64,000 nt of DNA from Promethearchaeota archaeon (GTDB taxonomy: Archaea; Asgardarchaeota; Lokiarchaeia; Sigyniarchaeales; SOKP01), in assembly GCA_048939995.1 (NCBI GenBank), contig JBHLOY010000001.1, forward strand, positions 64,001 through 128,000. The letters run 5' to 3'. The notes under the pieces were generated by a model that had not been told where the DNA came from, did not search any database, and was given only the letters and a program-made list of their open reading frames with translations. The position numbers and the translations under genes were made by a program. Of the stretch, positions 52,391-62,741 are shown piece by piece. Each line of letters opens with the position of its first letter. Positions within the stretch are counted from its first letter, which is position 1.

Positions 52391-53404
52391 GTGAAAGTTA
52401 TGGTTGAGTTTGAAATATGGAAACTTTATAAAAGCATGCTATATAGTCGCTTTTTTGAGAATGCTGTGAAAGATTTATGGGAAAAGGGAAAGATTTCCGG
52501 TGAAATGCATCTTGGAACAGGAGAAGAAGCTATTATAGCATGCGTAGTTTCACATTTAGAAAAGGGGGATGCTATAGCAGTTGACCATCGCGGAACAGCA
52601 GCATTTATAATACGAGGAGTTGATCCAGTTTTGTTATTATTAGAATTTTTAGGTCATCCTAAAGGGCTCTGCGCTGGGCAAGGAGGCCACATGCATCTCT
52701 TTTCAAAAGAACATTTGATCGCATCATCAGGTATTGTGGGGGCATCAGGTCCAGCAGCTACAGGATTTGCTTTAGCTTTAAAATACAAAAAGCAAAGAAA
52801 TATCGCTGTTGCATTCTTTGGAGAAGGTGCAATGAATCAAGGTATGATGCTTGAGTCAATGAACTTAGCTTCTGTTTGGAATTTACCTGTCCTCTTCGTC
52901 TGTAAAGATAACAATTGGGCAGTTACTACAATTACAAATGAAGTTACAGGAGGTAATTTAATAGATAGAGCAAAGGGTTTTGGCATTGAAGGATATGAAG
53001 TTGACGGGAAAGATTTAGAAGCAGTTTGGAAAGTAGCAAACGAAACAATCTCCAAAATACGTAATGATGATGGACCTAAGTTTATTCATGCACATTGTGT
53101 ACACACAGAAGGTCATTTTCTTGGGGATCCACTACTCAGATATTATCGAAATCCTAATCTGTTAACAGAAGTTGCTGATTCTCTTAAAGAGTATGCTGGG
53201 AAAAATTTAGATGAGATTCTTTTATTGTTACGGAAAATAGGGGGTCAAACTAAGAAAAAACTAGATCCTATAGCTGATGTTCAGAAAAAGTTGAAGAACG
53301 AACAAGATCGCCTTAGACAAATAGAACAAGAAGTAACAAAGGAAGTTGAGCAGTCAATTAATAGAGCATTAGAAATTTTTGAAGGAGGGATGAAAAATGG
53401 TTAA
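52391..53404 (+). CDS. TPP-dependent 2-oxoacid/acetoin dehydrogenase E1 alpha
   Basis: HLGTGEE, HRG, GGHMH, GIVG, GEGA..NLA..W.LP..NN, GHF..D. Confidence 0.9.
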   Translation: MKVMVEFEIWKLYKSMLYSRFFENAVKDLWEKGKISGEMHLGTGEEAIIACVVSHLEKGDAIAVDHRGTAAFIIRGVDPVLLLLEFLGHPKGLCAGQGGHMHLFSKEHLIASSGIVGASGPAATGFALALKYKKQRNIAVAFFGEGAMNQGMMLESMNLASVWNLPVLFVCKDNNWAVTTITNEVTGGNLIDRAKGFGIEGYEVDGKDLEAVWKVANETISKIRNDDGPKFIHAHCVHTEGHFLGDPLLRYYRNPNLLTEVADSLKEYAGKNLDEILLLLRKIGGQTKKKLDPIADVQKKLKNEQDRLRQIEQEVTKEVEQSINRALEIFEGGMKNG

Positions 53405-54410
53405 AATGGGATTCGCACAAGCAATAGAAAGTGTAATTGCTAAAGCTATGGAAGAAGATGAAAATATTATTATTATGGGAGAAGATGCTCATGGATTACG
53501 ATTAAATCTTTTTGTTCGATTTGGAAAAGAAAGAGTGAGGTCTGCACCTATAAGTGAGAGTGCGTTTGTGGGTGCTGCAGTCACAGCTGCAATGGCAGGA
53601 CTACGTCCCATTGTAGAAATTATGTTAGTGGATTTCGTTGGTGTAACAATGGATGCCATCCTTAATCATGCAGCAAAAATAGCATTTTTTTCGGGAAATA
53701 AATGGAATGTTCCAATAGTTATAAGAACTGCTTGTGGTGGTGGCTATGGTGATGCTGGACAACATGAACAGAGTTTATGGGGTTGGCTAGCACACATACC
53801 TGGGCTGAATATTGTCATCCCATCCAACCCTGCAGATGCAGGAGGCTTGATGCTCTCTTCCATATATGAAAATAACCCAGTAATTTATTTTGAACATAAA
53901 TTGCTTGCAGACTACTGGTTAGACTCTATGGGAAGCGGTGGTAGAACCACAGTTTCTTATGATGTTCCAGAAAAAGGACTAGAAGGAGAAATACCTGATA
54001 AATGGGAACCAATCCCTTTAGGTAAACTGAATCGAATGAAGGAAGGAAGTGATATCACCCTAGTTAGCGTTGGAGTTGGGGTTCACCGTGCTTTAGAAGC
54101 AGCTAATAAATTAGAAGAGAAAGGTATTTCTGCTGAGGTTTTAGACTTAAGGTGTGTGGTTCCATTAGATGTAGAAGGATTGAAGAATTCCGTAGAAAAA
54201 ACTGGAGTACTTTTAATAATTGATGAAGACTACAAAAACTTCGGACTTTCTGGAGAAATCTGTGCGATGCTTCTAGAAAGCGACATCTCATTTAAATTCG
54301 GTCGTGTTTGTACTGAAACTACCATCCCCTATTCAAGAGATTTAGAAGACCAAGTACTACCGAATACAAAAAGGATTATGAATGAATCACTTAAAATTTT
54401 AAAGAGGTAA
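53397..54410 (+). CDS. 2-oxoacid/acetoin dehydrogenase E1 beta
   Basis: GED, PISE, GLRP.VE, QHEQS, HIPG, FEHK, DLR..PLD; overlaps the alpha gene. Confidence 0.9.
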   Translation: MVKMGFAQAIESVIAKAMEEDENIIIMGEDAHGLRLNLFVRFGKERVRSAPISESAFVGAAVTAAMAGLRPIVEIMLVDFVGVTMDAILNHAAKIAFFSGNKWNVPIVIRTACGGGYGDAGQHEQSLWGWLAHIPGLNIVIPSNPADAGGLMLSSIYENNPVIYFEHKLLADYWLDSMGSGGRTTVSYDVPEKGLEGEIPDKWEPIPLGKLNRMKEGSDITLVSVGVGVHRALEAANKLEEKGISAEVLDLRCVVPLDVEGLKNSVEKTGVLLIIDEDYKNFGLSGEICAMLLESDISFKFGRVCTETTIPYSRDLEDQVLPNTKRIMNESLKILKR

Positions 54411-54436: not shown

Positions 54437-55576
54437 TTAAAATATATCTTTTCCACAAACTGGACAAAATTTATGCCCTTTAGATAATTTATACCCACAA
54501 TACTGACAAATAAGCTCTTTTTTAGGTTCTTTTTCCTTAATGATTACTCTTTGAGCTTGAGGTGCAGGCTTTATATCATCAGGCGGTTCGGGTGGTTTGT
54601 ACACATAGGGATATGGAAATCGATCATCTCTATCATCGGGTGGTGGAGGAGGCTTGTAACCATACAAAGAACCTAATAAATCATCGTCTCTATCATCCTT
54701 ATCAAATTCATCCATAATTTTTTTCGCTTTTTCAACCATTTCTTTTTCTGCAGGGTTTAACCTTACATTATTAGGTACTTCTACCTTTGGGGGGTATATA
54801 AATGACACATTGAGATGTTTTTCAATAAGCTCTTTTATTCCTCTAAAGTCTCTTATATTTCCATGAAACTCTTCAATTAGCTTCCCATAGTATTTATAAA
54901 TATCGTAAACTAATAACTCGACACCATGAATAAAATCTTTTGAGGGTGATTTTTTCATGATTAAAATGAGGCGAATATTTACAAATTCAGTCATTATTAT
55001 TATTGAATCTTTATAAGGGATTTGTATCGTTTTAGACTCTCTATCAGCAGAGATTTCTGAACCAAAAGCACGAACGGCTTGTAGAAAACCCGATATTAAA
55101 GTGGGGTCTAGCTCTTTTTCCTCAAAGGATTGGGAATGTAAATCGATTCCGGTTTTTGAATGCAGTACGATTATATATTTTAAATTCATAACATCATTAT
55201 ATTGTTCTATAAATGTTTGTAGCTTGTCTCTTTTACGAGATTCCCTCTTCTTAAACACTACATAACTCGAGTAACCTATAGCCACACCGCCAATAATAAT
55301 ACTTCCAATTATTATAAGTAACGTGAAATCTGGTGGTGTTATGGTAACGTTATTTGCGATGTTCCACTCTGTAGAGACCAAACCCAAATTAAATGCTTGC
55401 GCACTTAATTCTGTACACTTCATATTGGATGATTCTTTAATGGCAAACTTGTTTTGAATGGTTAAAGGTATCCCATTAGGCTGAGTTTTCAATAATATAA
55501 TATTATTTGTAAAAATCATAAAGAAGAGTAATAAACCAATGATAAACAAACCTGTTTTTTTCAAGTCTTGAGCCAT
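54437..55576 (-). CDS. Membrane protein with cytoplasmic longin-like domain, Pro-rich duplication and zinc ribbon
   Basis: Signal plus TM; IIVLHSKTGIDL..DPTLISGFLQAV.AFG.E; YKPPPPP/YKPPEPP; CQYCG..CPVCG. Confidence 0.7.
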   Translation of the reverse strand: MAQDLKKTGLFIIGLLLFFMIFTNNIILLKTQPNGIPLTIQNKFAIKESSNMKCTELSAQAFNLGLVSTEWNIANNVTITPPDFTLLIIIGSIIIGGVAIGYSSYVVFKKRESRKRDKLQTFIEQYNDVMNLKYIIVLHSKTGIDLHSQSFEEKELDPTLISGFLQAVRAFGSEISADRESKTIQIPYKDSIIIMTEFVNIRLILIMKKSPSKDFIHGVELLVYDIYKYYGKLIEEFHGNIRDFRGIKELIEKHLNVSFIYPPKVEVPNNVRLNPAEKEMVEKAKKIMDEFDKDDRDDDLLGSLYGYKPPPPPDDRDDRFPYPYVYKPPEPPDDIKPAPQAQRVIIKEKEPKKELICQYCGYKLSKGHKFCPVCGKDIF

Positions 55577-55770: not shown

Positions 55771-57753
55771 TTAAGCTGTTTTTACATCCATCTTTTTGCG
55801 TTCTTCTATAAGCTGTTCTACGATTTCTGGATTAGCTAAAGTCGTGACATTTCCAACATCTCCACCTGTCGCAATTGCCTTCAGAATTCGCCGCATTATC
55901 TTGCCACTCCTTGTTTTCGGTAACTCGTCCGCAAATTGTACTACATCTGGTTGAAATACCGGACCAATCTCTTTCCTAACATGCATTCTAATGTCCTTAG
56001 ATAACTTTGCAGACTTTTCAGCTCCTTGGATTAGCGTTACGAATGCCCAAATCGCCTGTCCTTTTATCTCATGTGGAAATGGTGCAACTGCGGCTTCAGC
56101 GACTTTAGGATGGCTTACGATCGCTGATTCAACTTCCATTGTCCCAATTCTATGCCCGGATACTTTTATGACATCATCAAGTCGACCAAGAATCCAATAA
56201 TAGCCATCTTCATCTCGCCGAGCTCCATCCCCTGTATAATAATACCCGGGATACTTATTGAGATAGGTGGATTTAAAACGTTCCGTATCACCCCATACGT
56301 CTCTTAGCATACCTGGCCAAGGTTTAGCTATCGCAAAGTATCCACCTTCATTTGGTTCAGTGATTTCTTCTCCTTCAAGATCAAATATCACAGGTTTTAT
56401 CCCGAGAAAGGGTAGGCAGCAAGAACCTGGTTTTGTTGGAGTCGCAGTAGCGATGGGAGTCATGATAAAGCCTCCTGTCTCTGTCTGCCAATAAGTATCT
56501 ACTATTGGCGCTCTCTCTTTGCCAACCACCCGATGATACCAAGTCCAAGCCTCGGGATTGATTGGCTCGCCAACGGTTCCTAAGACTTTCAGTGAATCTA
56601 AATTATGCTTTTTAACTGGATCATCTCCGTATCTCATTAATGCTCTAATTGCCGTCGGGGCGGTATAGAAATGAGTTACCTTATGACGTTCTACAATATC
56701 CCAGAATCGATCTACTTCGGGGAACGTAGGAACTCCTTCGAACATAAGAGATGTTGCTCCATTAGCTAATGGTCCGTAAACGATGTATGAATGCCCAGTA
56801 ATCCAGCCAATATCTGCAGTACAATACCAAACATCTCCGTCTTGATAATTGAAAACCACTTTATGGGTATAGGAGGTATATAGGATGTATCCTGCGGTAG
56901 TGTGTTTAACACCTTTTGGTTTACCGGTGGTTCCGCTCGTATAGAGAATAAAGAGAGTGTCTTCAGAATCCATATGTTCTGGTTCACAATCTTCACTCAT
57001 ATCTTTGATGAAGTCTGAATACCAAATATCTTTACTGGTATGAGATACTTCATTTCCAGTTCGTTTAACAACAATAACATGCTCAATGGTGGGTACATCA
57101 TCAATAATTTGGACTACATCACTCATTTTAGGATAGAATTTACCTGCTCTAACGGTTTCATCACTAGTAAACAAAAGTCTTGAATTAGAGTCATCGATTC
57201 TATCCTTTACAGCTTCTTTAGAGAATCCACCAAAAACAATTGAATGAATGACGCCAATTCTTGCGCAGGCTAACATTATAATGGCTAATTCAGGGATCAT
57301 TGGGAGCCAAATTGTGACCCTATCACCTTTCTTTAGACCATTTTTTTTCATAGCATTTGCGACTTTATTAACTTCCTTTAATAATTCATTGTAAGTGTAT
57401 TTCTTGACTTCTCCTGGAGCATCAGCCTCCCAAATTAGCGCAACTTTATCACCATTCCCATTTTTTACGTGTCTATCTAAGCAATTATATGCCACATTAA
57501 GTTTTCCCCCAACAAACCACTTTCCTGGGAATAAGTCTGTCTCTTCCCATACTTTTTCATAAGGTTTAAACCAATCGAGTGATTTAGCTTGTTCAGCCCA
57601 AAAATCTTCCATGTTTTCAATAGATTTGTTGTATAACTCTTGATATTCCTTAAATGACATTCCAGTTTCAGCAAATTTCGAGTTTAACTTAACAGGATCG
57701 AAAACACGAGTTTCAATAAGTATACTTTCCATCTTTTTATCTTCTTCTGACAT
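55771..57753 (-). CDS. acs: AMP-forming acetyl-CoA synthetase
   Basis: YTSGTTGKPKG, ADIGWITGH, GEPINP, DTYWQTETG, GRLDD, LPKTRSGKIMRR. Confidence 0.97.
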   Translation of the reverse strand: MSEEDKKMESILIETRVFDPVKLNSKFAETGMSFKEYQELYNKSIENMEDFWAEQAKSLDWFKPYEKVWEETDLFPGKWFVGGKLNVAYNCLDRHVKNGNGDKVALIWEADAPGEVKKYTYNELLKEVNKVANAMKKNGLKKGDRVTIWLPMIPELAIIMLACARIGVIHSIVFGGFSKEAVKDRIDDSNSRLLFTSDETVRAGKFYPKMSDVVQIIDDVPTIEHVIVVKRTGNEVSHTSKDIWYSDFIKDMSEDCEPEHMDSEDTLFILYTSGTTGKPKGVKHTTAGYILYTSYTHKVVFNYQDGDVWYCTADIGWITGHSYIVYGPLANGATSLMFEGVPTFPEVDRFWDIVERHKVTHFYTAPTAIRALMRYGDDPVKKHNLDSLKVLGTVGEPINPEAWTWYHRVVGKERAPIVDTYWQTETGGFIMTPIATATPTKPGSCCLPFLGIKPVIFDLEGEEITEPNEGGYFAIAKPWPGMLRDVWGDTERFKSTYLNKYPGYYYTGDGARRDEDGYYWILGRLDDVIKVSGHRIGTMEVESAIVSHPKVAEAAVAPFPHEIKGQAIWAFVTLIQGAEKSAKLSKDIRMHVRKEIGPVFQPDVVQFADELPKTRSGKIMRRILKAIATGGDVGNVTTLANPEIVEQLIEERKKMDVKTA

Positions 57754-57839
57754 AAAATTTCACAATTTTGAATTTCTATTTTTTTACATGATTTACAAGT
57801 TTTTTTAATTTTAAAAATGAATTAAAGCTTTTTGTTCGA

Positions 57840-57866
57840 TCTTATAACACTTAAGACGTTATAAGA
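57840..57866. promoter_or_regulatory. 9-bp perfect inverted repeat between divergent acs and CoA-transferase-GNAT genes
   Basis: TCTTATAAC-N9-GTTATAAGA. Confidence 0.55.
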
Positions 57867-58028
57867 CCATCAAAAAAGGAAATTCTAAATAATTTTTAAA
57901 CATTTTATTTATAAATAATATATAAATTAGTTTGTTGAGAATTCAAAAAAAGTTAAATGAATACAGAAATAAATAATAGAAATATAGAACTCTTTAGTAA
58001 CAATTAGGATTGATATTTTTTATTTAAA

Positions 58029-59939
58029 ATGGAAAAAAAAGATTTATTAGATAAAGATTGGCGAAATAAATGGAAGAATAAGGAAATTACGGTAGTAGAG
58101 GCAATCAAAAAAATTATACCTGGAAATCGTGTCTTTATCGATACAGCATGTTCTGAGCCCCAAGCTCTAACCAATCAATTGATAAAATCTTCTGAGAGTT
58201 TATTAGATACGGAACTTATTCATTTTTTAACAATATTTCCCGAGAAGTACTTTAAGGATAAAGCAGAAGATTTATTTAGACATAATGCTTTTTTTATCGG
58301 AAAAACATTAAGAGAAGAGATTAATAAAGGACAAGCAGATTATACACCAATTTTTGCCAATGAAATTCCTTCTCTATTCGTAACTGGAAGAAAAAATTGT
58401 GATGTAGCACTCATTCAAGTTACTCCCCCTGACAGAAACGGTTTCTGTTCTTTTGGTACAAATGTAGATGTTGCTAAACCGATTGCTAAATCAGCTTATA
58501 TTACAATCGCAGAGATTAATCCCCAGATGCCCAGGACCTTAGGAAATAGTTTTATCCACATGAAGGAAATAGATTTTTATGTATATAATGATACTCCATT
58601 ATTGGAATTTCATTTTAAGGAGAAAAATCCAGAAGTAATGGATCGTATTGGGAGAAATGTCGCTGATTTAATTGAAAACAAGTCAACAATACATATTGGT
58701 AATGGCTATTTACCTAATGCTTGTTTGAAATATTTGATGAATAAAAAAGATCTTGGAATGCATAGCCATTATATCACAGATAACATAATACCCTTAATTA
58801 AAAATACCGTTTTAACCTCAAGAAAAAAGAACTTTCATCCTGAGAAGATTGTCACTAGCTTTGCATTAGGTACCAAGAAATTATTTGATTTCATCGATAA
58901 CAATCCATATATTGAGTTTTATCCATCAGATTATGTATGCAACCCCAAATATATTGGCATGAATAAAAAAATGGTGTCAATAAATCAAGCCTTACAAATA
59001 GATTTGACTGGACAGGTCAATGCCTCTACTAAAGGATATGATTTTTATTCTGGAATAGGAGATACTGTTGATTTCATGCGCGGTGCGGCATTTTCTAAAG
59101 GAGGAAAACCGATAATTATATTACCTTCAACAACAAAGAATGGAGAACAATCTACAATAGTAGCTCATTTGGATGAAGGAGCAGGAGTTATGTTATCTCG
59201 AGCTGATATCCATTATGTAGTAACTGAATGGGGTCTAGCGTATTTACATGGTAAAACCATAAGAGAACGAGTTCTTGAATTAATTTGTATTGCCCATCCT
59301 AAATTTCGTGAACAATTATTGGAACATGCTAAGAAACTAAACTATGTCTATTCCGACCAAATTTTACCTTGTGATGAAGATGGTAAAATTTGTCGATATC
59401 CAATTGAGTATGAAACCTCATTCACAACTCGAGACAATATAAAAGTAAAGATAAGACCTGTAAAGCCTACAGACGAGCCTTTATTGAAAGAGTTGTATTA
59501 CTCGCTTAATGAAAGGGATAGATACTTAAGATTTTTTGAAATTAGAAAAGAATTTACTCATTCAAGAACACAGAATGAAGTTAACATTGATTATAATAAA
59601 ATTTTTTCTATAGGGGCATTTGTAGGAGATATTGGAAAAGAGGAGATGGTAGGAAATGCGGCTTATTATTTGAATCCTAATAATAATATGGCAGAATATA
59701 GTTTTTTGGTAAGAGAGAACTATCGAGGAAAAGGTATTGGTTCTTATTTATACCATGCTTTAATAATCATTGCTAAAGAAAAGGGAATAAAAGGTTTTTT
59801 TGGAAATATACATGTCCAGAATAAAAAGACAATTCAAATTATAGGGACCGGTGGTTATACAAAAATAACTCCACCCGAGGAAGGAGAAAAAGAATTATTT
59901 TATGAAGTCTTTTTTGATAAAGAAAATTCAATGGAATAG
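58029..59939 (+). CDS. Acetyl-CoA hydrolase/transferase-like domain (degenerate active site) fused to a GNAT
   Basis: ADYTP, DVALIQV.PPD..G.CS.G, DLTGQV, DF..GA..S.GGK, VVTEWG.A.L.GK; C-terminal IRPVKPTD..RYLRFF..YRGKGIG. Confidence 0.9.
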   Translation: MEKKDLLDKDWRNKWKNKEITVVEAIKKIIPGNRVFIDTACSEPQALTNQLIKSSESLLDTELIHFLTIFPEKYFKDKAEDLFRHNAFFIGKTLREEINKGQADYTPIFANEIPSLFVTGRKNCDVALIQVTPPDRNGFCSFGTNVDVAKPIAKSAYITIAEINPQMPRTLGNSFIHMKEIDFYVYNDTPLLEFHFKEKNPEVMDRIGRNVADLIENKSTIHIGNGYLPNACLKYLMNKKDLGMHSHYITDNIIPLIKNTVLTSRKKNFHPEKIVTSFALGTKKLFDFIDNNPYIEFYPSDYVCNPKYIGMNKKMVSINQALQIDLTGQVNASTKGYDFYSGIGDTVDFMRGAAFSKGGKPIIILPSTTKNGEQSTIVAHLDEGAGVMLSRADIHYVVTEWGLAYLHGKTIRERVLELICIAHPKFREQLLEHAKKLNYVYSDQILPCDEDGKICRYPIEYETSFTTRDNIKVKIRPVKPTDEPLLKELYYSLNERDRYLRFFEIRKEFTHSRTQNEVNIDYNKIFSIGAFVGDIGKEEMVGNAAYYLNPNNNMAEYSFLVRENYRGKGIGSYLYHALIIIAKEKGIKGFFGNIHVQNKKTIQIIGTGGYTKITPPEEGEKELFYEVFFDKENSME

Positions 59940-60807: not shown

Positions 60808-61521
60808 ATGGAGTCAAAAGAGTTTTTAAATCGATTAAATCAATGGGATAAAAGGTTTATTTTAAGATATAATGGAATAGGAGGAAAAGGATTTACATAT
60901 ACCTTAAAACTTATATCTTTTACTGGACGAGAAACTATTTGGTTAATCTTAATGGTGTATTACCTATTTATTTGGTATGATCCCTATGTATTGGCTCATA
61001 TAAGCATAACTTTTTTAATTGGGCTCATTATTATTACTCCCATAAAAAGAATATTTAATCGATCTCGACCATTTGAGCAATTAGAAAGTATCAAAATTCT
61101 GGAGAGGAAGCCCACCTCAAGAAGTTTTCCATCTTGGCATGCTTATAACGTTACATCGCAAGGATTGTTAATTGGTTATCTGTTGAATTCATTATTTATA
61201 ATGATCCTGTTTCTTTTATTTGCTGTAATCGTTGGGTTCTCAAGAATTCAACTAGGCGCTCATTATCCTAGTGATGTTATTTTTGGATATGTTATAGGAT
61301 TAATCGGGTTTATGATATCAGTATTTCTGTTTTCACCATTATTTTTTGAATTAATTAAGCTTCTAGAGATGATTATACCATTTGAAATACAATATTTTAG
61401 AATTAATCCTTGGTTATTTGAACATATTTGGTATATTATTTTGTGTATAGGAATGTTTTGTTTAATATTTGTTATCTCTAGTTATAAAATTTTAAAAAAT
61501 TTCTTTAAAAATAGGGCTTAA
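60808..61521 (+). CDS. PAP2 membrane phosphatase
   Basis: K......RP, SFPSWH, SRIQLGAHYPSDV. Confidence 0.9.
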   Translation: MESKEFLNRLNQWDKRFILRYNGIGGKGFTYTLKLISFTGRETIWLILMVYYLFIWYDPYVLAHISITFLIGLIIITPIKRIFNRSRPFEQLESIKILERKPTSRSFPSWHAYNVTSQGLLIGYLLNSLFIMILFLLFAVIVGFSRIQLGAHYPSDVIFGYVIGLIGFMISVFLFSPLFFELIKLLEMIIPFEIQYFRINPWLFEHIWYIILCIGMFCLIFVISSYKILKNFFKNRA

Positions 61522-62741
61522 AGATTAAGTCTTTTTTTCTTATCAAAAAGTTGTTTTAATTCATCAAGAACCTTCAGTCGAGAATCAGCTGGATTAACTC
61601 GTGCTTGTCTTTGATCAGGGTTAGCTATGCTAATTGGAATTCCACTTTGAGCAACTTGAAATGCTCCACTCTCAATTGCTCTCAATCTACTGTCAAGATC
61701 ACTTAATTGTTTCGATATACTTTCTGAAAGGCGAATTACAGCATTCATTGTTTCTTCCAAAGTTTTACCTAAGCCTTCTACTTTTCTTAAAGTTGGATTT
61801 GTTAATGAATCCGTAGTTTTCATAACATCTTTAATATATTTTGAAAATTGAGGTTCATTTGATATTAATGAGTAAATAGATGTAAGATAAGCTTCATAAT
61901 CAAATCCAAATTGATTCATTAATGTGTTAATATTATCCTTTAACAATTCTATGCTCAACAGGATTTCAGGTTCAGTTTTTATATCTGGATCTACCTTATG
62001 AATATAAATTACAATAAATGGATTTTCTTCTAAAGTTAATAACACATTTAATATTTCTTCAAAATATTCAAAAGACTCAGCAAATCTTTCTGAATCTTGA
62101 ATATCAATAACATATATTAATAGATCTATTTGAAGGAAATAATATTCTGGGTGTTTTAAATATTTATTACGATATTGTTTTTGACCCCCCATATCCCATA
62201 TAAAAACATCAAGTGCAGATTCTTCGGTTTTTATAAATTGACGCTGTACCCCTTTGGTTGGTTTTAGATTTACTAAACCAGTTATCCCCAATTTTCCTCC
62301 GTATTTAGATAATATGGCAGTTTTACCAGCATTATCTAACCCGATGATCATAATCTTTTGAGCTTTTTTTTCAAAAATCTCTTTATCTTTTGCATTAATT
62401 ATTATAGAACTAATAGCAATAGCTTTCTTTAAGTTTTTTTCGAACTCAGGGTAATTTTGTTTTAGATCCTCAATTATCTTGTTAATTTCTAATTGATCTT
62501 CAACACTTTTCTTATTTATAGTTTCAAAGGGATCTTCTTTATTAATTTTTGAGAGTTCTTCGATATTTGTGACATTAAAAATTTCTTCTAAGAATTTAGA
62601 GATAATTTTATCAAAGAATTTAAAAGAATGAATGGGTAATTGCCTTATATCATCCATAGTGGTTAATTTACTTATTTTGGCTTCTTTAGGGTCTAAGAAT
62701 CTCGAAAATATATTAATAATATTTGAAATATCTGTTGACAT
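61518..62741 (-). CDS. Arf/Rag-like GTPase with N-terminal extension and C-terminal coiled coil
   Basis: GLDNAGKT, PTKG, WDMGGQ, HKVD, TSIY. Confidence 0.88.
   Translation of the reverse strand: MSTDISNIINIFSRFLDPKEAKISKLTTMDDIRQLPIHSFKFFDKIISKFLEEIFNVTNIEELSKINKEDPFETINKKSVEDQLEINKIIEDLKQNYPEFEKNLKKAIAISSIIINAKDKEIFEKKAQKIMIIGLDNAGKTAILSKYGGKLGITGLVNLKPTKGVQRQFIKTEESALDVFIWDMGGQKQYRNKYLKHPEYYFLQIDLLIYVIDIQDSERFAESFEYFEEILNVLLTLEENPFIVIYIHKVDPDIKTEPEILLSIELLKDNINTLMNQFGFDYEAYLTSIYSLISNEPQFSKYIKDVMKTTDSLTNPTLRKVEGLGKTLEETMNAVIRLSESISKQLSDLDSRLRAIESGAFQVAQSGIPISIANPDQRQARVNPADSRLKVLDELKQLFDKKKRLNL

Follow-up and report, generated by a model that had tools for sequence, protein, structure and literature searches.

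A CoA-transferase-like domain with a rebuilt catalytic core, fused to a Pat-type acetyltransferase and encoded divergently from acs in Asgard archaea: a probable new type of acetyl-CoA synthetase switch

The stretch of DNA analysed here, referred to as the window, comprises 64,000 nucleotides from a Promethearchaeota archaeon (contig JBHLOY010000001.1, positions 64,001 to 128,000) and carries two genes that are transcribed in opposite directions and lie 275 bp apart. One of them is acs, which encodes an AMP-forming acetyl-coenzyme A (CoA) synthetase (Acs), and the other encodes a fusion protein consisting of a CoA-transferase-like domain followed by a GNAT acetyltransferase domain of the Pat type. 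The fusion protein is probably a switch of a new type, by which the synthetase is inactivated through acetylation of a lysine. Analysis of the pair leads, on a modest balance of probability, to a more specific proposal, namely that the fusion is an Acs-specific lysine acetyltransferase whose N-terminal half no longer performs canonical CoA transfer and plays a regulatory and scaffolding role. Reversible acetylation of Acs is a textbook case of post-translational control in central metabolism, and the enzymes responsible for it are classed according to their regulatory domain. The features on which the argument is built are the following, in coordinates of the window:

55771..57753, minus strand: acs, AMP-forming acetyl-CoA synthetase of 660 residues, the proposed substrate (TIGR02188, Pfam)
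55900..55902, minus strand: codon of Lys618, the last Lys of PKTRSGK and proposed acetylation site (codon confirmed)
57754..58028, no strand: divergent intergenic region of 275 bp common to acs and the fusion gene, with identical head-to-head layout in about 55 related genomes
58029..59939, plus strand: fusion gene (H-type, see below), 636 residues, CoA-transferase-like domain and Pat-type GNAT (Pfam, structure alignments)
58053..59336, plus strand: CoA-transferase-like domain, residues 9-436 (3eh7, E 5e-112)
58692..58694, plus strand: His222, replacing the Gln of LQxGxG (AarC Gln267)
58767..58769, plus strand: His247, replacing the catalytic Glu nucleophile (AarC Glu294, RipA Glu249)
58938..58940, plus strand: Cys304, replacing the internal oxyanion-hole Asn (AarC Asn347)
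59061..59063, plus strand: Asp345, replacing the external oxyanion-hole Gly (AarC Gly388)
59394..59903, plus strand: Pat-type GNAT domain, residues 456-625 (matches to PatZ, the PatA GNAT, MtPat and Sulfolobus Pat)
59694..59696, plus strand: Glu556, putative catalytic base (aligned with PatZ Glu809)
59724..59741, plus strand: GNAT motif A, R566-G-K-G569-I-G571, acetyl-CoA pyrophosphate loop

The N-terminal half of the fusion is homologous to CoA-transferases over both halves of the fold (PF02550, 1.8e-28; PF13336, 5e-61). Pfam places AcetylCoA_hydro at residues 9-188, AcetylCoA_hyd_C at 281-434 and GNAT at 473-609, and the alignment to 3eh7 covers residues 12-436. An earlier note, made from this DNA alone, had reported that the catalytic motifs of the domain are altered and that the covalent Glu is exchanged for His, and alignment to the solved 4-hydroxybutyrate CoA-transferases 3eh7, 9vag and 2oas bears out both points: LGIHTE has become LGMHSH, GGQ(V/L/M)D(F/Y) has become GDTVDF, and LQLGIG has become IHIGNG. 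The extent of these changes was assessed in an alignment of the window protein and its 120 closest database homologues (n = 121), which are 73-96% identical to it and are collectively termed H-type, the near-identical ones bearing Asgard names (Hodarchaeota, Promethearchaeota, Lokiarchaeota). As a reference, 84 active-like homologues keeping Glu and GG were used, among which 58 positions are conserved in at least 85%. The window protein retains 51 of these positions, and at five of the seven that changed a new residue has become fixed, or almost so, in the H-type sequences. His222, at a position occupied by Gln in 90% of the active-like homologues, and Cys304 are both present in 121 of 121, although the Cys304 position is Ser in one surveyed genome (G274) and in the sister protein P0123. 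Position 247 is His in 115 sequences, Tyr in four, Leu in one and Phe in one; since none of the 121 has Glu there, its loss is neither a chance event nor a sequencing slip. Position 345 is Asp in 66 and Glu in 55, compared with Gly in all 84 active-like homologues, an invariance imposed by the choice of that set, and position 218, Gly in the family, is Lys in 116 of the 121.

In AarC, Glu294 is the nucleophile, Asn347 constitutes the internal oxyanion hole and buttresses this Glu, and the external oxyanion hole is provided by the amide of Gly388, a residue that class I enzymes conserve strictly; moreover, Gln267, Glu294 and Gly388 are each located about 4 Å from one ligand atom (PMC4876117). 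In RipA, the G-V-G loop of LQxGxG adjoins the catalytic Glu (PMC3180442; for the role of Glu see also PMC4876117). Positions 222, 304 and 345 of the fusion were mapped to AarC by motif spacing, with 304/345/349 corresponding to AarC 347/388/392, and, because the spacing equals that of AarC, His222, His247, Cys304 and Asp345 would occupy the AarC catalytic core. Judged by its sequence, the fusion therefore lacks the Glu nucleophile, the external oxyanion Gly and the internal oxyanion Asn that characterize class I CoA-transferases. Since the nucleophile has been lost together with both oxyanion-hole residues, and core residues are replaced in every orthologue, canonical glutamyl-CoA chemistry has presumably been lost, as the earlier note held, and the domain appears to be dead for the canonical mechanism only. 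That note had named another Glu in the active site as an outcome that would speak against it, and this applies in part: a conserved acidic residue, Asp or Glu345, does stand at the place of the oxyanion Gly, and His222 and Cys304 are likewise fixed.

The altered site does not resemble one in decay. Mean identity among orthologues amounts to 80.5% in the CoA-transferase-like domain versus 78.8% in the GNAT, and, for the same genome pairs, whole-protein identity is about 76-82% for the H-type versus 79-84% for a catalytically intact paralogue described below. This similar conservation and divergence shows that the catalytic site has been rebuilt and constrained and that the domain is under strong purifying selection. 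In-frame stops were flagged within some H-type matches; in the one inspected (G192), the stop falls at codon 3, ahead of a probable later start, and no stop was found inside the BLAST alignment in the other H-type genes fetched.

The C-terminal half retains the motifs of a Pat-type enzyme, as previously noted. RP..D, RYLRFF and YRGKGIG can be aligned both to PatZ of E. coli and to the GNAT of Streptomyces PatA, and the Pat-specific N-terminal YP...E lead-in is present. PatZ (9it0, 9isq; E 9e-15), the Streptomyces lividans PatA GNAT (4nxy; 7e-14), mycobacterial Pat (MtPat) and Sulfolobus Pat (SsPat) head the list of PDB matches, so that, by homology, the best solved relatives of the domain are all acetyltransferases of Acs. 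The domain also matches PF00583 (4.7e-10) and the NCBIfam model ActPatMycb56 (1.5e-14, under its equivalog cut-off). Glu556, conserved in at least 90% of a GNAT alignment (A1), lies in MAEYSF where 9it0 has DAEFAV (Glu809 in alignment numbering), and R566-G-K-G-I-G571 aligns with K-G-L-G-L-G of PatZ. In turn, the product of acs scores 955.6 bits against TIGR02188, above the cut-off of 724.95 and thus at equivalog level, and contains the domains ACAS_N, AMP-binding and AMP-binding_C. Its A10 Lys motif PKTRSGK is intact, and Lys618 corresponds to Lys609 of Salmonella Acs by alignment to the chains 1pg3, 2p2f and 5jrh, which corroborates the earlier statement that the gene divergent from the fusion encodes a synthetase with its regulatory Lys in place. 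Within the genome, a query with the GNAT domain found two Pat-type GNATs only, both of them in fusion paralogues, and the deacetylase genes comprise three of SIR2 type and four of HDAC type, none at the locus.

A structural model of the two proteins points in the same direction. The modelled pair consisted of residues 520-660 of Acs, its C-terminal domain (6-row alignment), and the GNAT (residues 444-636, alignment A1, 48 rows used), and reached an interface score (ipSAE) of 0.74 (runs of 0.72, 0.75 and 0.74) versus 0.00 for the best control. Among solved complexes, 58 of 80 attain the mark applied to this score, as do 2 of 110 mismatched pairs. Contacts agreed among runs to at least 88%, and the confidence score (pLDDT) of the partners was at least 86. 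In the model, Acs Lys618 contacts GNAT residues 501-504 and 556-558, which include the catalytic Glu, and acetylation of Lys618 by the GNAT can be proposed on this basis. Each of the modelled chains has a homologue in the solved complex 4U5Y.

The pairing of the fusion gene with acs was surveyed in 400 genomes of the phylum, where proteins at least 70% identical to the window protein were taken as orthologues. H-type orthologues are confined to the window's own GTDB family. The synteny with acs to which the earlier note had drawn attention proved to be conserved: both genes are found within 6 kb on one contig in 81 genomes, 77 from two genome-wide searches and four from fetched loci. About 55 of them show the two genes directly head to head, the rest have one to three unrelated genes inserted (a tetratricopeptide repeat protein, an Rce1-like protease, a 1248-residue protein), and in two (G274, G276) the genes are convergent. 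Several genomes carry the H-type gene without an acs match (G239, G265, G271 and others); they were rejected as true exceptions, since their acs is truncated at a contig end or displaced by 1-6 kb through inserted genes. At the thresholds used, neither the H-type gene nor acs is present in the four genomes of genus g6, whose completeness is 89-100%.

This association does not extend to other members of the fusion family. No acs was found within about 6 kb of the Glu-retaining paralogue at eight loci (L002, L016, L017, L020-L023) or of an f3-type relative at two loci of the neighbouring family, and in the two closed or nearly closed genomes of family f3 a distance of over 1.5 Mb separates acs and the fusion gene. 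Moreover, no acyl-CoA synthetase gene lies near four fusions that lack the catalytic Glu, namely P0123 (Phe, sister of the H-type), P0284 (Gln, Desulfobacterales), P0132 (Cys, Heimdallarchaeota) and P0130 (Gln, Myxococcales). These four independent lineages led to the rejection of a general correlation between loss of Glu and adjacency to acs, which the earlier note had put forward for comparison across genomes. The association between the H-type gene and acs is thus real but represents a single evolutionary event.

A natural deletion indicates which parts of the pair belong together. In genus g2, acs has as its divergent neighbour a gene for a GNAT only, of 175-193 residues, which is 60% identical to the H-type GNAT, compared with 38% between the two paralogous GNATs of the window genome, and which nests within the H-type GNAT clade (SH-aLRT 98). 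One genome of the genus (G145) has a 40-codon open reading frame matching the transferase-like N-terminus just upstream of the GNAT and behind the conserved promoter-like element described below. Sequence and tree thus show that the CoA-transferase-like domain was lost by deletion with retention of the GNAT-acs pairing, and therefore the conserved functional pair is that of GNAT and Acs, the N-terminal domain being accessory. As a side observation, at one g2 locus the 40-codon relic (L044:9976-10098, plus strand) is separated by 10 nt from the GNAT-only open reading frame (L044:10109-10636, plus strand), an arrangement perhaps compatible with translational reinitiation.

The earlier note had envisaged that the switch was built at this locus from a dead enzyme, a scenario that does not agree with the history of the family. 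Apart from a stand-alone CoA-transferase, the window genome encodes a second CoA-transferase-GNAT fusion, 49% identical to the first, in which LGVHSE, GIGGQVDF and IQMGIG are intact:

L002:1465-3378 (G000:C11), minus strand, about 330 kb downstream of the window: Glu-retaining fusion paralogue, 637 residues

The Glu-retaining form is far more widespread among the surveyed genomes than the H-type. A search of 1.8 billion cluster representatives yielded, among the best 150 hits, 82 fusion clusters at 50% identity, which carry generic annotation only and whose named members belong to Promethearchaeia, Heimdallarchaeota, Desulfobacterales and Myxococcales. The full Q/E/N/GG core is kept in 25 of the 82 fusion representatives versus 43 of 66 stand-alone enzymes. 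In a tree of the transferase domain, the H-type clade is sister to P0123, both are sister to the "LA(I/L)YSE" type of the neighbouring family, and the Glu-retaining paralogue falls outside all three. From the tree and the distribution it follows that the fusion is older and the rebuilt core a later change in one branch; hence, the H-type gene is a duplicate of an older, widespread fusion of Asgard archaea and bacteria.

Some further variation was observed in the family. GNAT motif A of the Glu-retaining paralogue ends in Thr (RNLGIT), and its gene is flanked by one encoding an HhH-GPD glycosylase with a winged helix-turn-helix and by a radical S-adenosylmethionine gene. In the bacterial variants P0128 (967 residues) and P0130 (960 residues; L030:6001-8883), the CoA-transferase-GNAT part begins at about residue 335-345 and has a degenerate core, with Val or Gln for Glu and GG missing; the extra N-terminal part of P0130, whose cluster contains a Myxococcales member, gives ferredoxin-like 4Fe-4S hits. 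Among the stand-alone representatives, 9 of 66 (P0224, P0225, P0230, P0232, P0236, P0247, P0256, P0260 and P0265) have Gly at the catalytic-Glu position (LGIHSG) with the oxyanion GG kept, several of them with His at the Asn position, and may form a subfamily with a different nucleophile.

According to the mechanism proposed for the switch, the Pat-type GNAT would take its acetyl group from acetyl-CoA, the product of Acs, and transfer it onto Lys618 in PKTRSGK. In characterised Acs enzymes, acetylation at this Lys stops the half-reaction of adenylation. The acetyl group would be removed again by deacetylases of sirtuin or HDAC type, whose genes lie at other places in the genome. The N-terminal domain most likely serves as a regulatory and scaffolding module. 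It would form a dimer and contribute to the docking site for Acs, and its rebuilt pocket would bind a CoA species or other small ligand and might thereby act as a sensor. Two precedents are consistent with such an arrangement: the dead regulatory domain of PatZ binds acetyl-CoA and shapes the Acs pocket (PMC12184503), and in Bacilli acsA is divergent from acuABC (PMC13121692).

Several points weigh against this proposal. The fusion family is known from sequences alone. The pairing arose once, so that the many genomes sharing it count as one event, and adjacency of the genes could stem from a common place in acetyl-CoA metabolism rather than from regulation. No deacetylase gene is linked to the locus. 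The deletion in genus g2 implies that the N-terminal domain is not indispensable. Because both modelled chains are homologous to those of 4U5Y, the score of the Acs/GNAT model may be recall of that complex; it expresses likeness instead of binding. Finally, conservation of the rebuilt site (His222, His247, Cys304, Asp/Glu345 and Lys218) could also mean a new catalytic or metal centre. A broader reading of this kind, which we regard as rather doubtful, holds that a new His/His/Cys(Ser)/Asp-Glu centre, either a triad forming an acyl-enzyme or a metal/redox site, gates the fused acetyltransferase, and that the fusion family makes up a major class of protein acyltransferases in prokaryotes that has so far gone unrecognised. 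If this were true, Asgard Acs would be coupled to a signal sensed by no known lysine acetyltransferase.

The catalytic form of this idea, in which the N-terminal domain would have remained an enzyme by means of a nucleophile that is new or has moved and its link to acs is metabolic besides or instead of regulatory, is unlikely. Candidates for the new chemistry are a triad of Cys304 (Ser in two relatives), His222 and Asp/Glu345, or the carboxylate of Asp/Glu345, which would react with acyl-CoA to give an acyl-enzyme; this would make the protein bifunctional, e.g., a thioesterase or acyl-relay joined to an acetyltransferase and operating in acetate/acetyl-CoA cycling. In published AarC structures (PMC4876117), the four core positions do lie only a few angstroms apart, and these structures and those of RipA suggest a like clustering in the fusion. 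Moreover, the replacements are typical of catalytic triads and fixed in the 121 orthologues, the nucleophile-like position exchanges Cys for Ser (G274, P0123), the domain is as conserved as the GNAT, and the Glu-retaining paralogue has the same architecture with a seemingly live transferase. However, His247 gives way to Tyr, Leu or Phe in 6 of the 121 orthologues and to Phe in P0123, Asp and Glu are about equally frequent at position 345, an unusual freedom for a nucleophile or triad acid that requires exact placement, the loss of the strictly conserved oxyanion Gly should disturb thioester binding, and genus g2 manages without the whole domain.

It is improbable that the GNAT has a target other than Acs, such as another protein, a protein N-terminus or a small amine, with Acs only supplying acetyl-CoA. 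Many GNATs are promiscuous, and adjacency alone is weak evidence; furthermore, other fusion members are not located beside acyl-CoA synthetase genes and, therefore, the ancestral substrate was probably not Acs alone. Nevertheless, the nearest characterised GNATs all acetylate Acs, the Pat-specific YP...E extension is present, the pairing with acs outlasts deletion of the other domain, and the model sets Lys618 at the catalytic Glu. Least probable is a metal (Zn or Fe) or redox-sensitive site that is structural or couples Acs acetylation to metal or redox state: the positions of His222, His245/His247, Cys304 and Asp/Glu345 face each other in homologous structures, interchange of Asp and Glu is normal among metal ligands, and other fusion lineages show the N-to-C and Q-to-H changes as well, but two relatives have Ser in place of Cys304, His247 varies, and the site is proposed from sequence comparison, its recurrence in distant lineages depending on uncertain alignments.

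The region between acs and the fusion gene contains one further feature of note:

57895..57914, plus strand: conserved promoter-like element TTTAAACATTTTATTTATAA upstream of the fusion gene

This element is near-identical at three other loci (L045, L049, L005), appears in a variant form at two more (L041, L044), and may represent a B recognition element and TATA box. A perfect 8-bp inverted repeat, CTTATAAC-N9-GTTATAAG, occurs in the same region at 57841-57865; an operator role was dropped for it, as the repeat is absent from orthologous regions. With respect to acs itself, orthologues in four related genomes (L045:1251-1280, L046:1078-1107, L047:1026-1055 and L048:1036-1065, all minus strand) carry, at an identical site between YWQ and TETGG, insertions that measure exactly 30 nt and include an in-frame stop. 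The inserted sequences differ, and every one of them is a hairpin with compensating changes, which makes them candidates for a mini-intron within a protein-coding gene. The insertion is absent from acs of the window, where the site lies between codons 423 and 424 (about 56482-56487). Around the locus, the window encodes both the E1 alpha and beta subunits of a thiamine pyrophosphate-dependent 2-oxoacid dehydrogenase (52391-54410, plus strand), a 379-residue protein with a zinc ribbon at its end (54437-55576, minus strand) and a 407-residue small GTPase that matches the Arf and Gtr1/RagA models (61518-62741, minus strand). This GTPase and the Asgard names of the near-identical fusion proteins mark the DNA as that of an Asgard archaeon.

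With regard to known systems, no description of a CoA-transferase-GNAT architecture was found in the literature under Pfam accessions, domain names or the combination of Asgard, Acs and acetyltransferase, and the reviews together with a 2025 survey of PatZ list ACD-like (ADP-forming acyl-CoA synthetase), cAMP, ACT and NADP+ regulatory domains only. A regulatory domain derived from a CoA-transferase would therefore add a widespread class of Acs acetyltransferases. Handling of acetate and acetyl-CoA is central to syntrophy models of eukaryogenesis, and the locus would provide a concrete regulatory node in this part of Asgard metabolism. The family also offers a natural series, formed by the paralogue with an intact core, the rebuilt H-type and the deletion variant.

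Compared with the 4-hydroxybutyrate and related class I CoA-transferases (3eh7, 3gk7, 9vag, RipA, AarC), the fusion is homologous over both Pfam halves; unlike them, it has lost the Glu, the oxyanion Asn and Gly and the Gln of LQxGxG, and has a GNAT attached. In Bacillus, as in the locus described here, an acetyltransferase gene is divergent from acs (acsA/acuABC), and the GNAT inactivates Acs via acetylation of the equivalent Lys (PMC13121692, PMC11255334). However, AcuA is a single-domain GNAT of another subfamily, accompanied in its operon by the deacetylase AcuC and the sensor AcuB, whereas in the Asgard protein the candidate sensor is fused and no deacetylase is linked. In the complex 4U5Y, formed by the S. 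lividans PatA GNAT and the C-terminal domain of Salmonella Acs, the interface centres on the same Lys as in the predicted interface, although that complex is bacterial and chimeric, unlike the modelled Asgard pair.

The lysine acetyltransferases of types I to III provide the closest comparison. The type I enzymes Pat/PatZ (Salmonella, E. coli; 9it0, 9isq), whose classic substrate is Acs Lys609, possess a homologous C-terminal GNAT (E 9e-15) with identical catalytic Glu and motif A. The fusion lacks the hallmark of types I and II, an ADP-forming acyl-CoA-synthetase-like domain, and its layout is type III-like: cAMP-MtPat, the ACT-GNAT protein AAPatA and NADP-MxKat likewise combine an N-terminal effector domain of 300-400 residues with a C-terminal GNAT and have Acs as a substrate. 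The effector domains reported for type III in reviews up to 2025 bind cAMP, are of the ACT kind or bind NADP+, and one derived from a CoA-transferase is not among them. PatZ and the fusion are nonetheless alike in that each carries a large N-terminal domain taken from an enzyme that interconverts acetyl-CoA and acetate, with the catalytic residue lost. The two domains are unrelated, that of PatZ being an ACD homologue of about 700 residues and that of the fusion a class I CoA-transferase fold of about 440; moreover, unlike PatZ, the fusion has new conserved residues in the old active site, and its gene is physically paired with acs. Thus, the fusion would be the second independent case in which an enzyme of acetate/acetyl-CoA metabolism was recycled as the regulatory half of a Pat protein, a convergence that would inform how metabolic sensors arise from pseudoenzymes.

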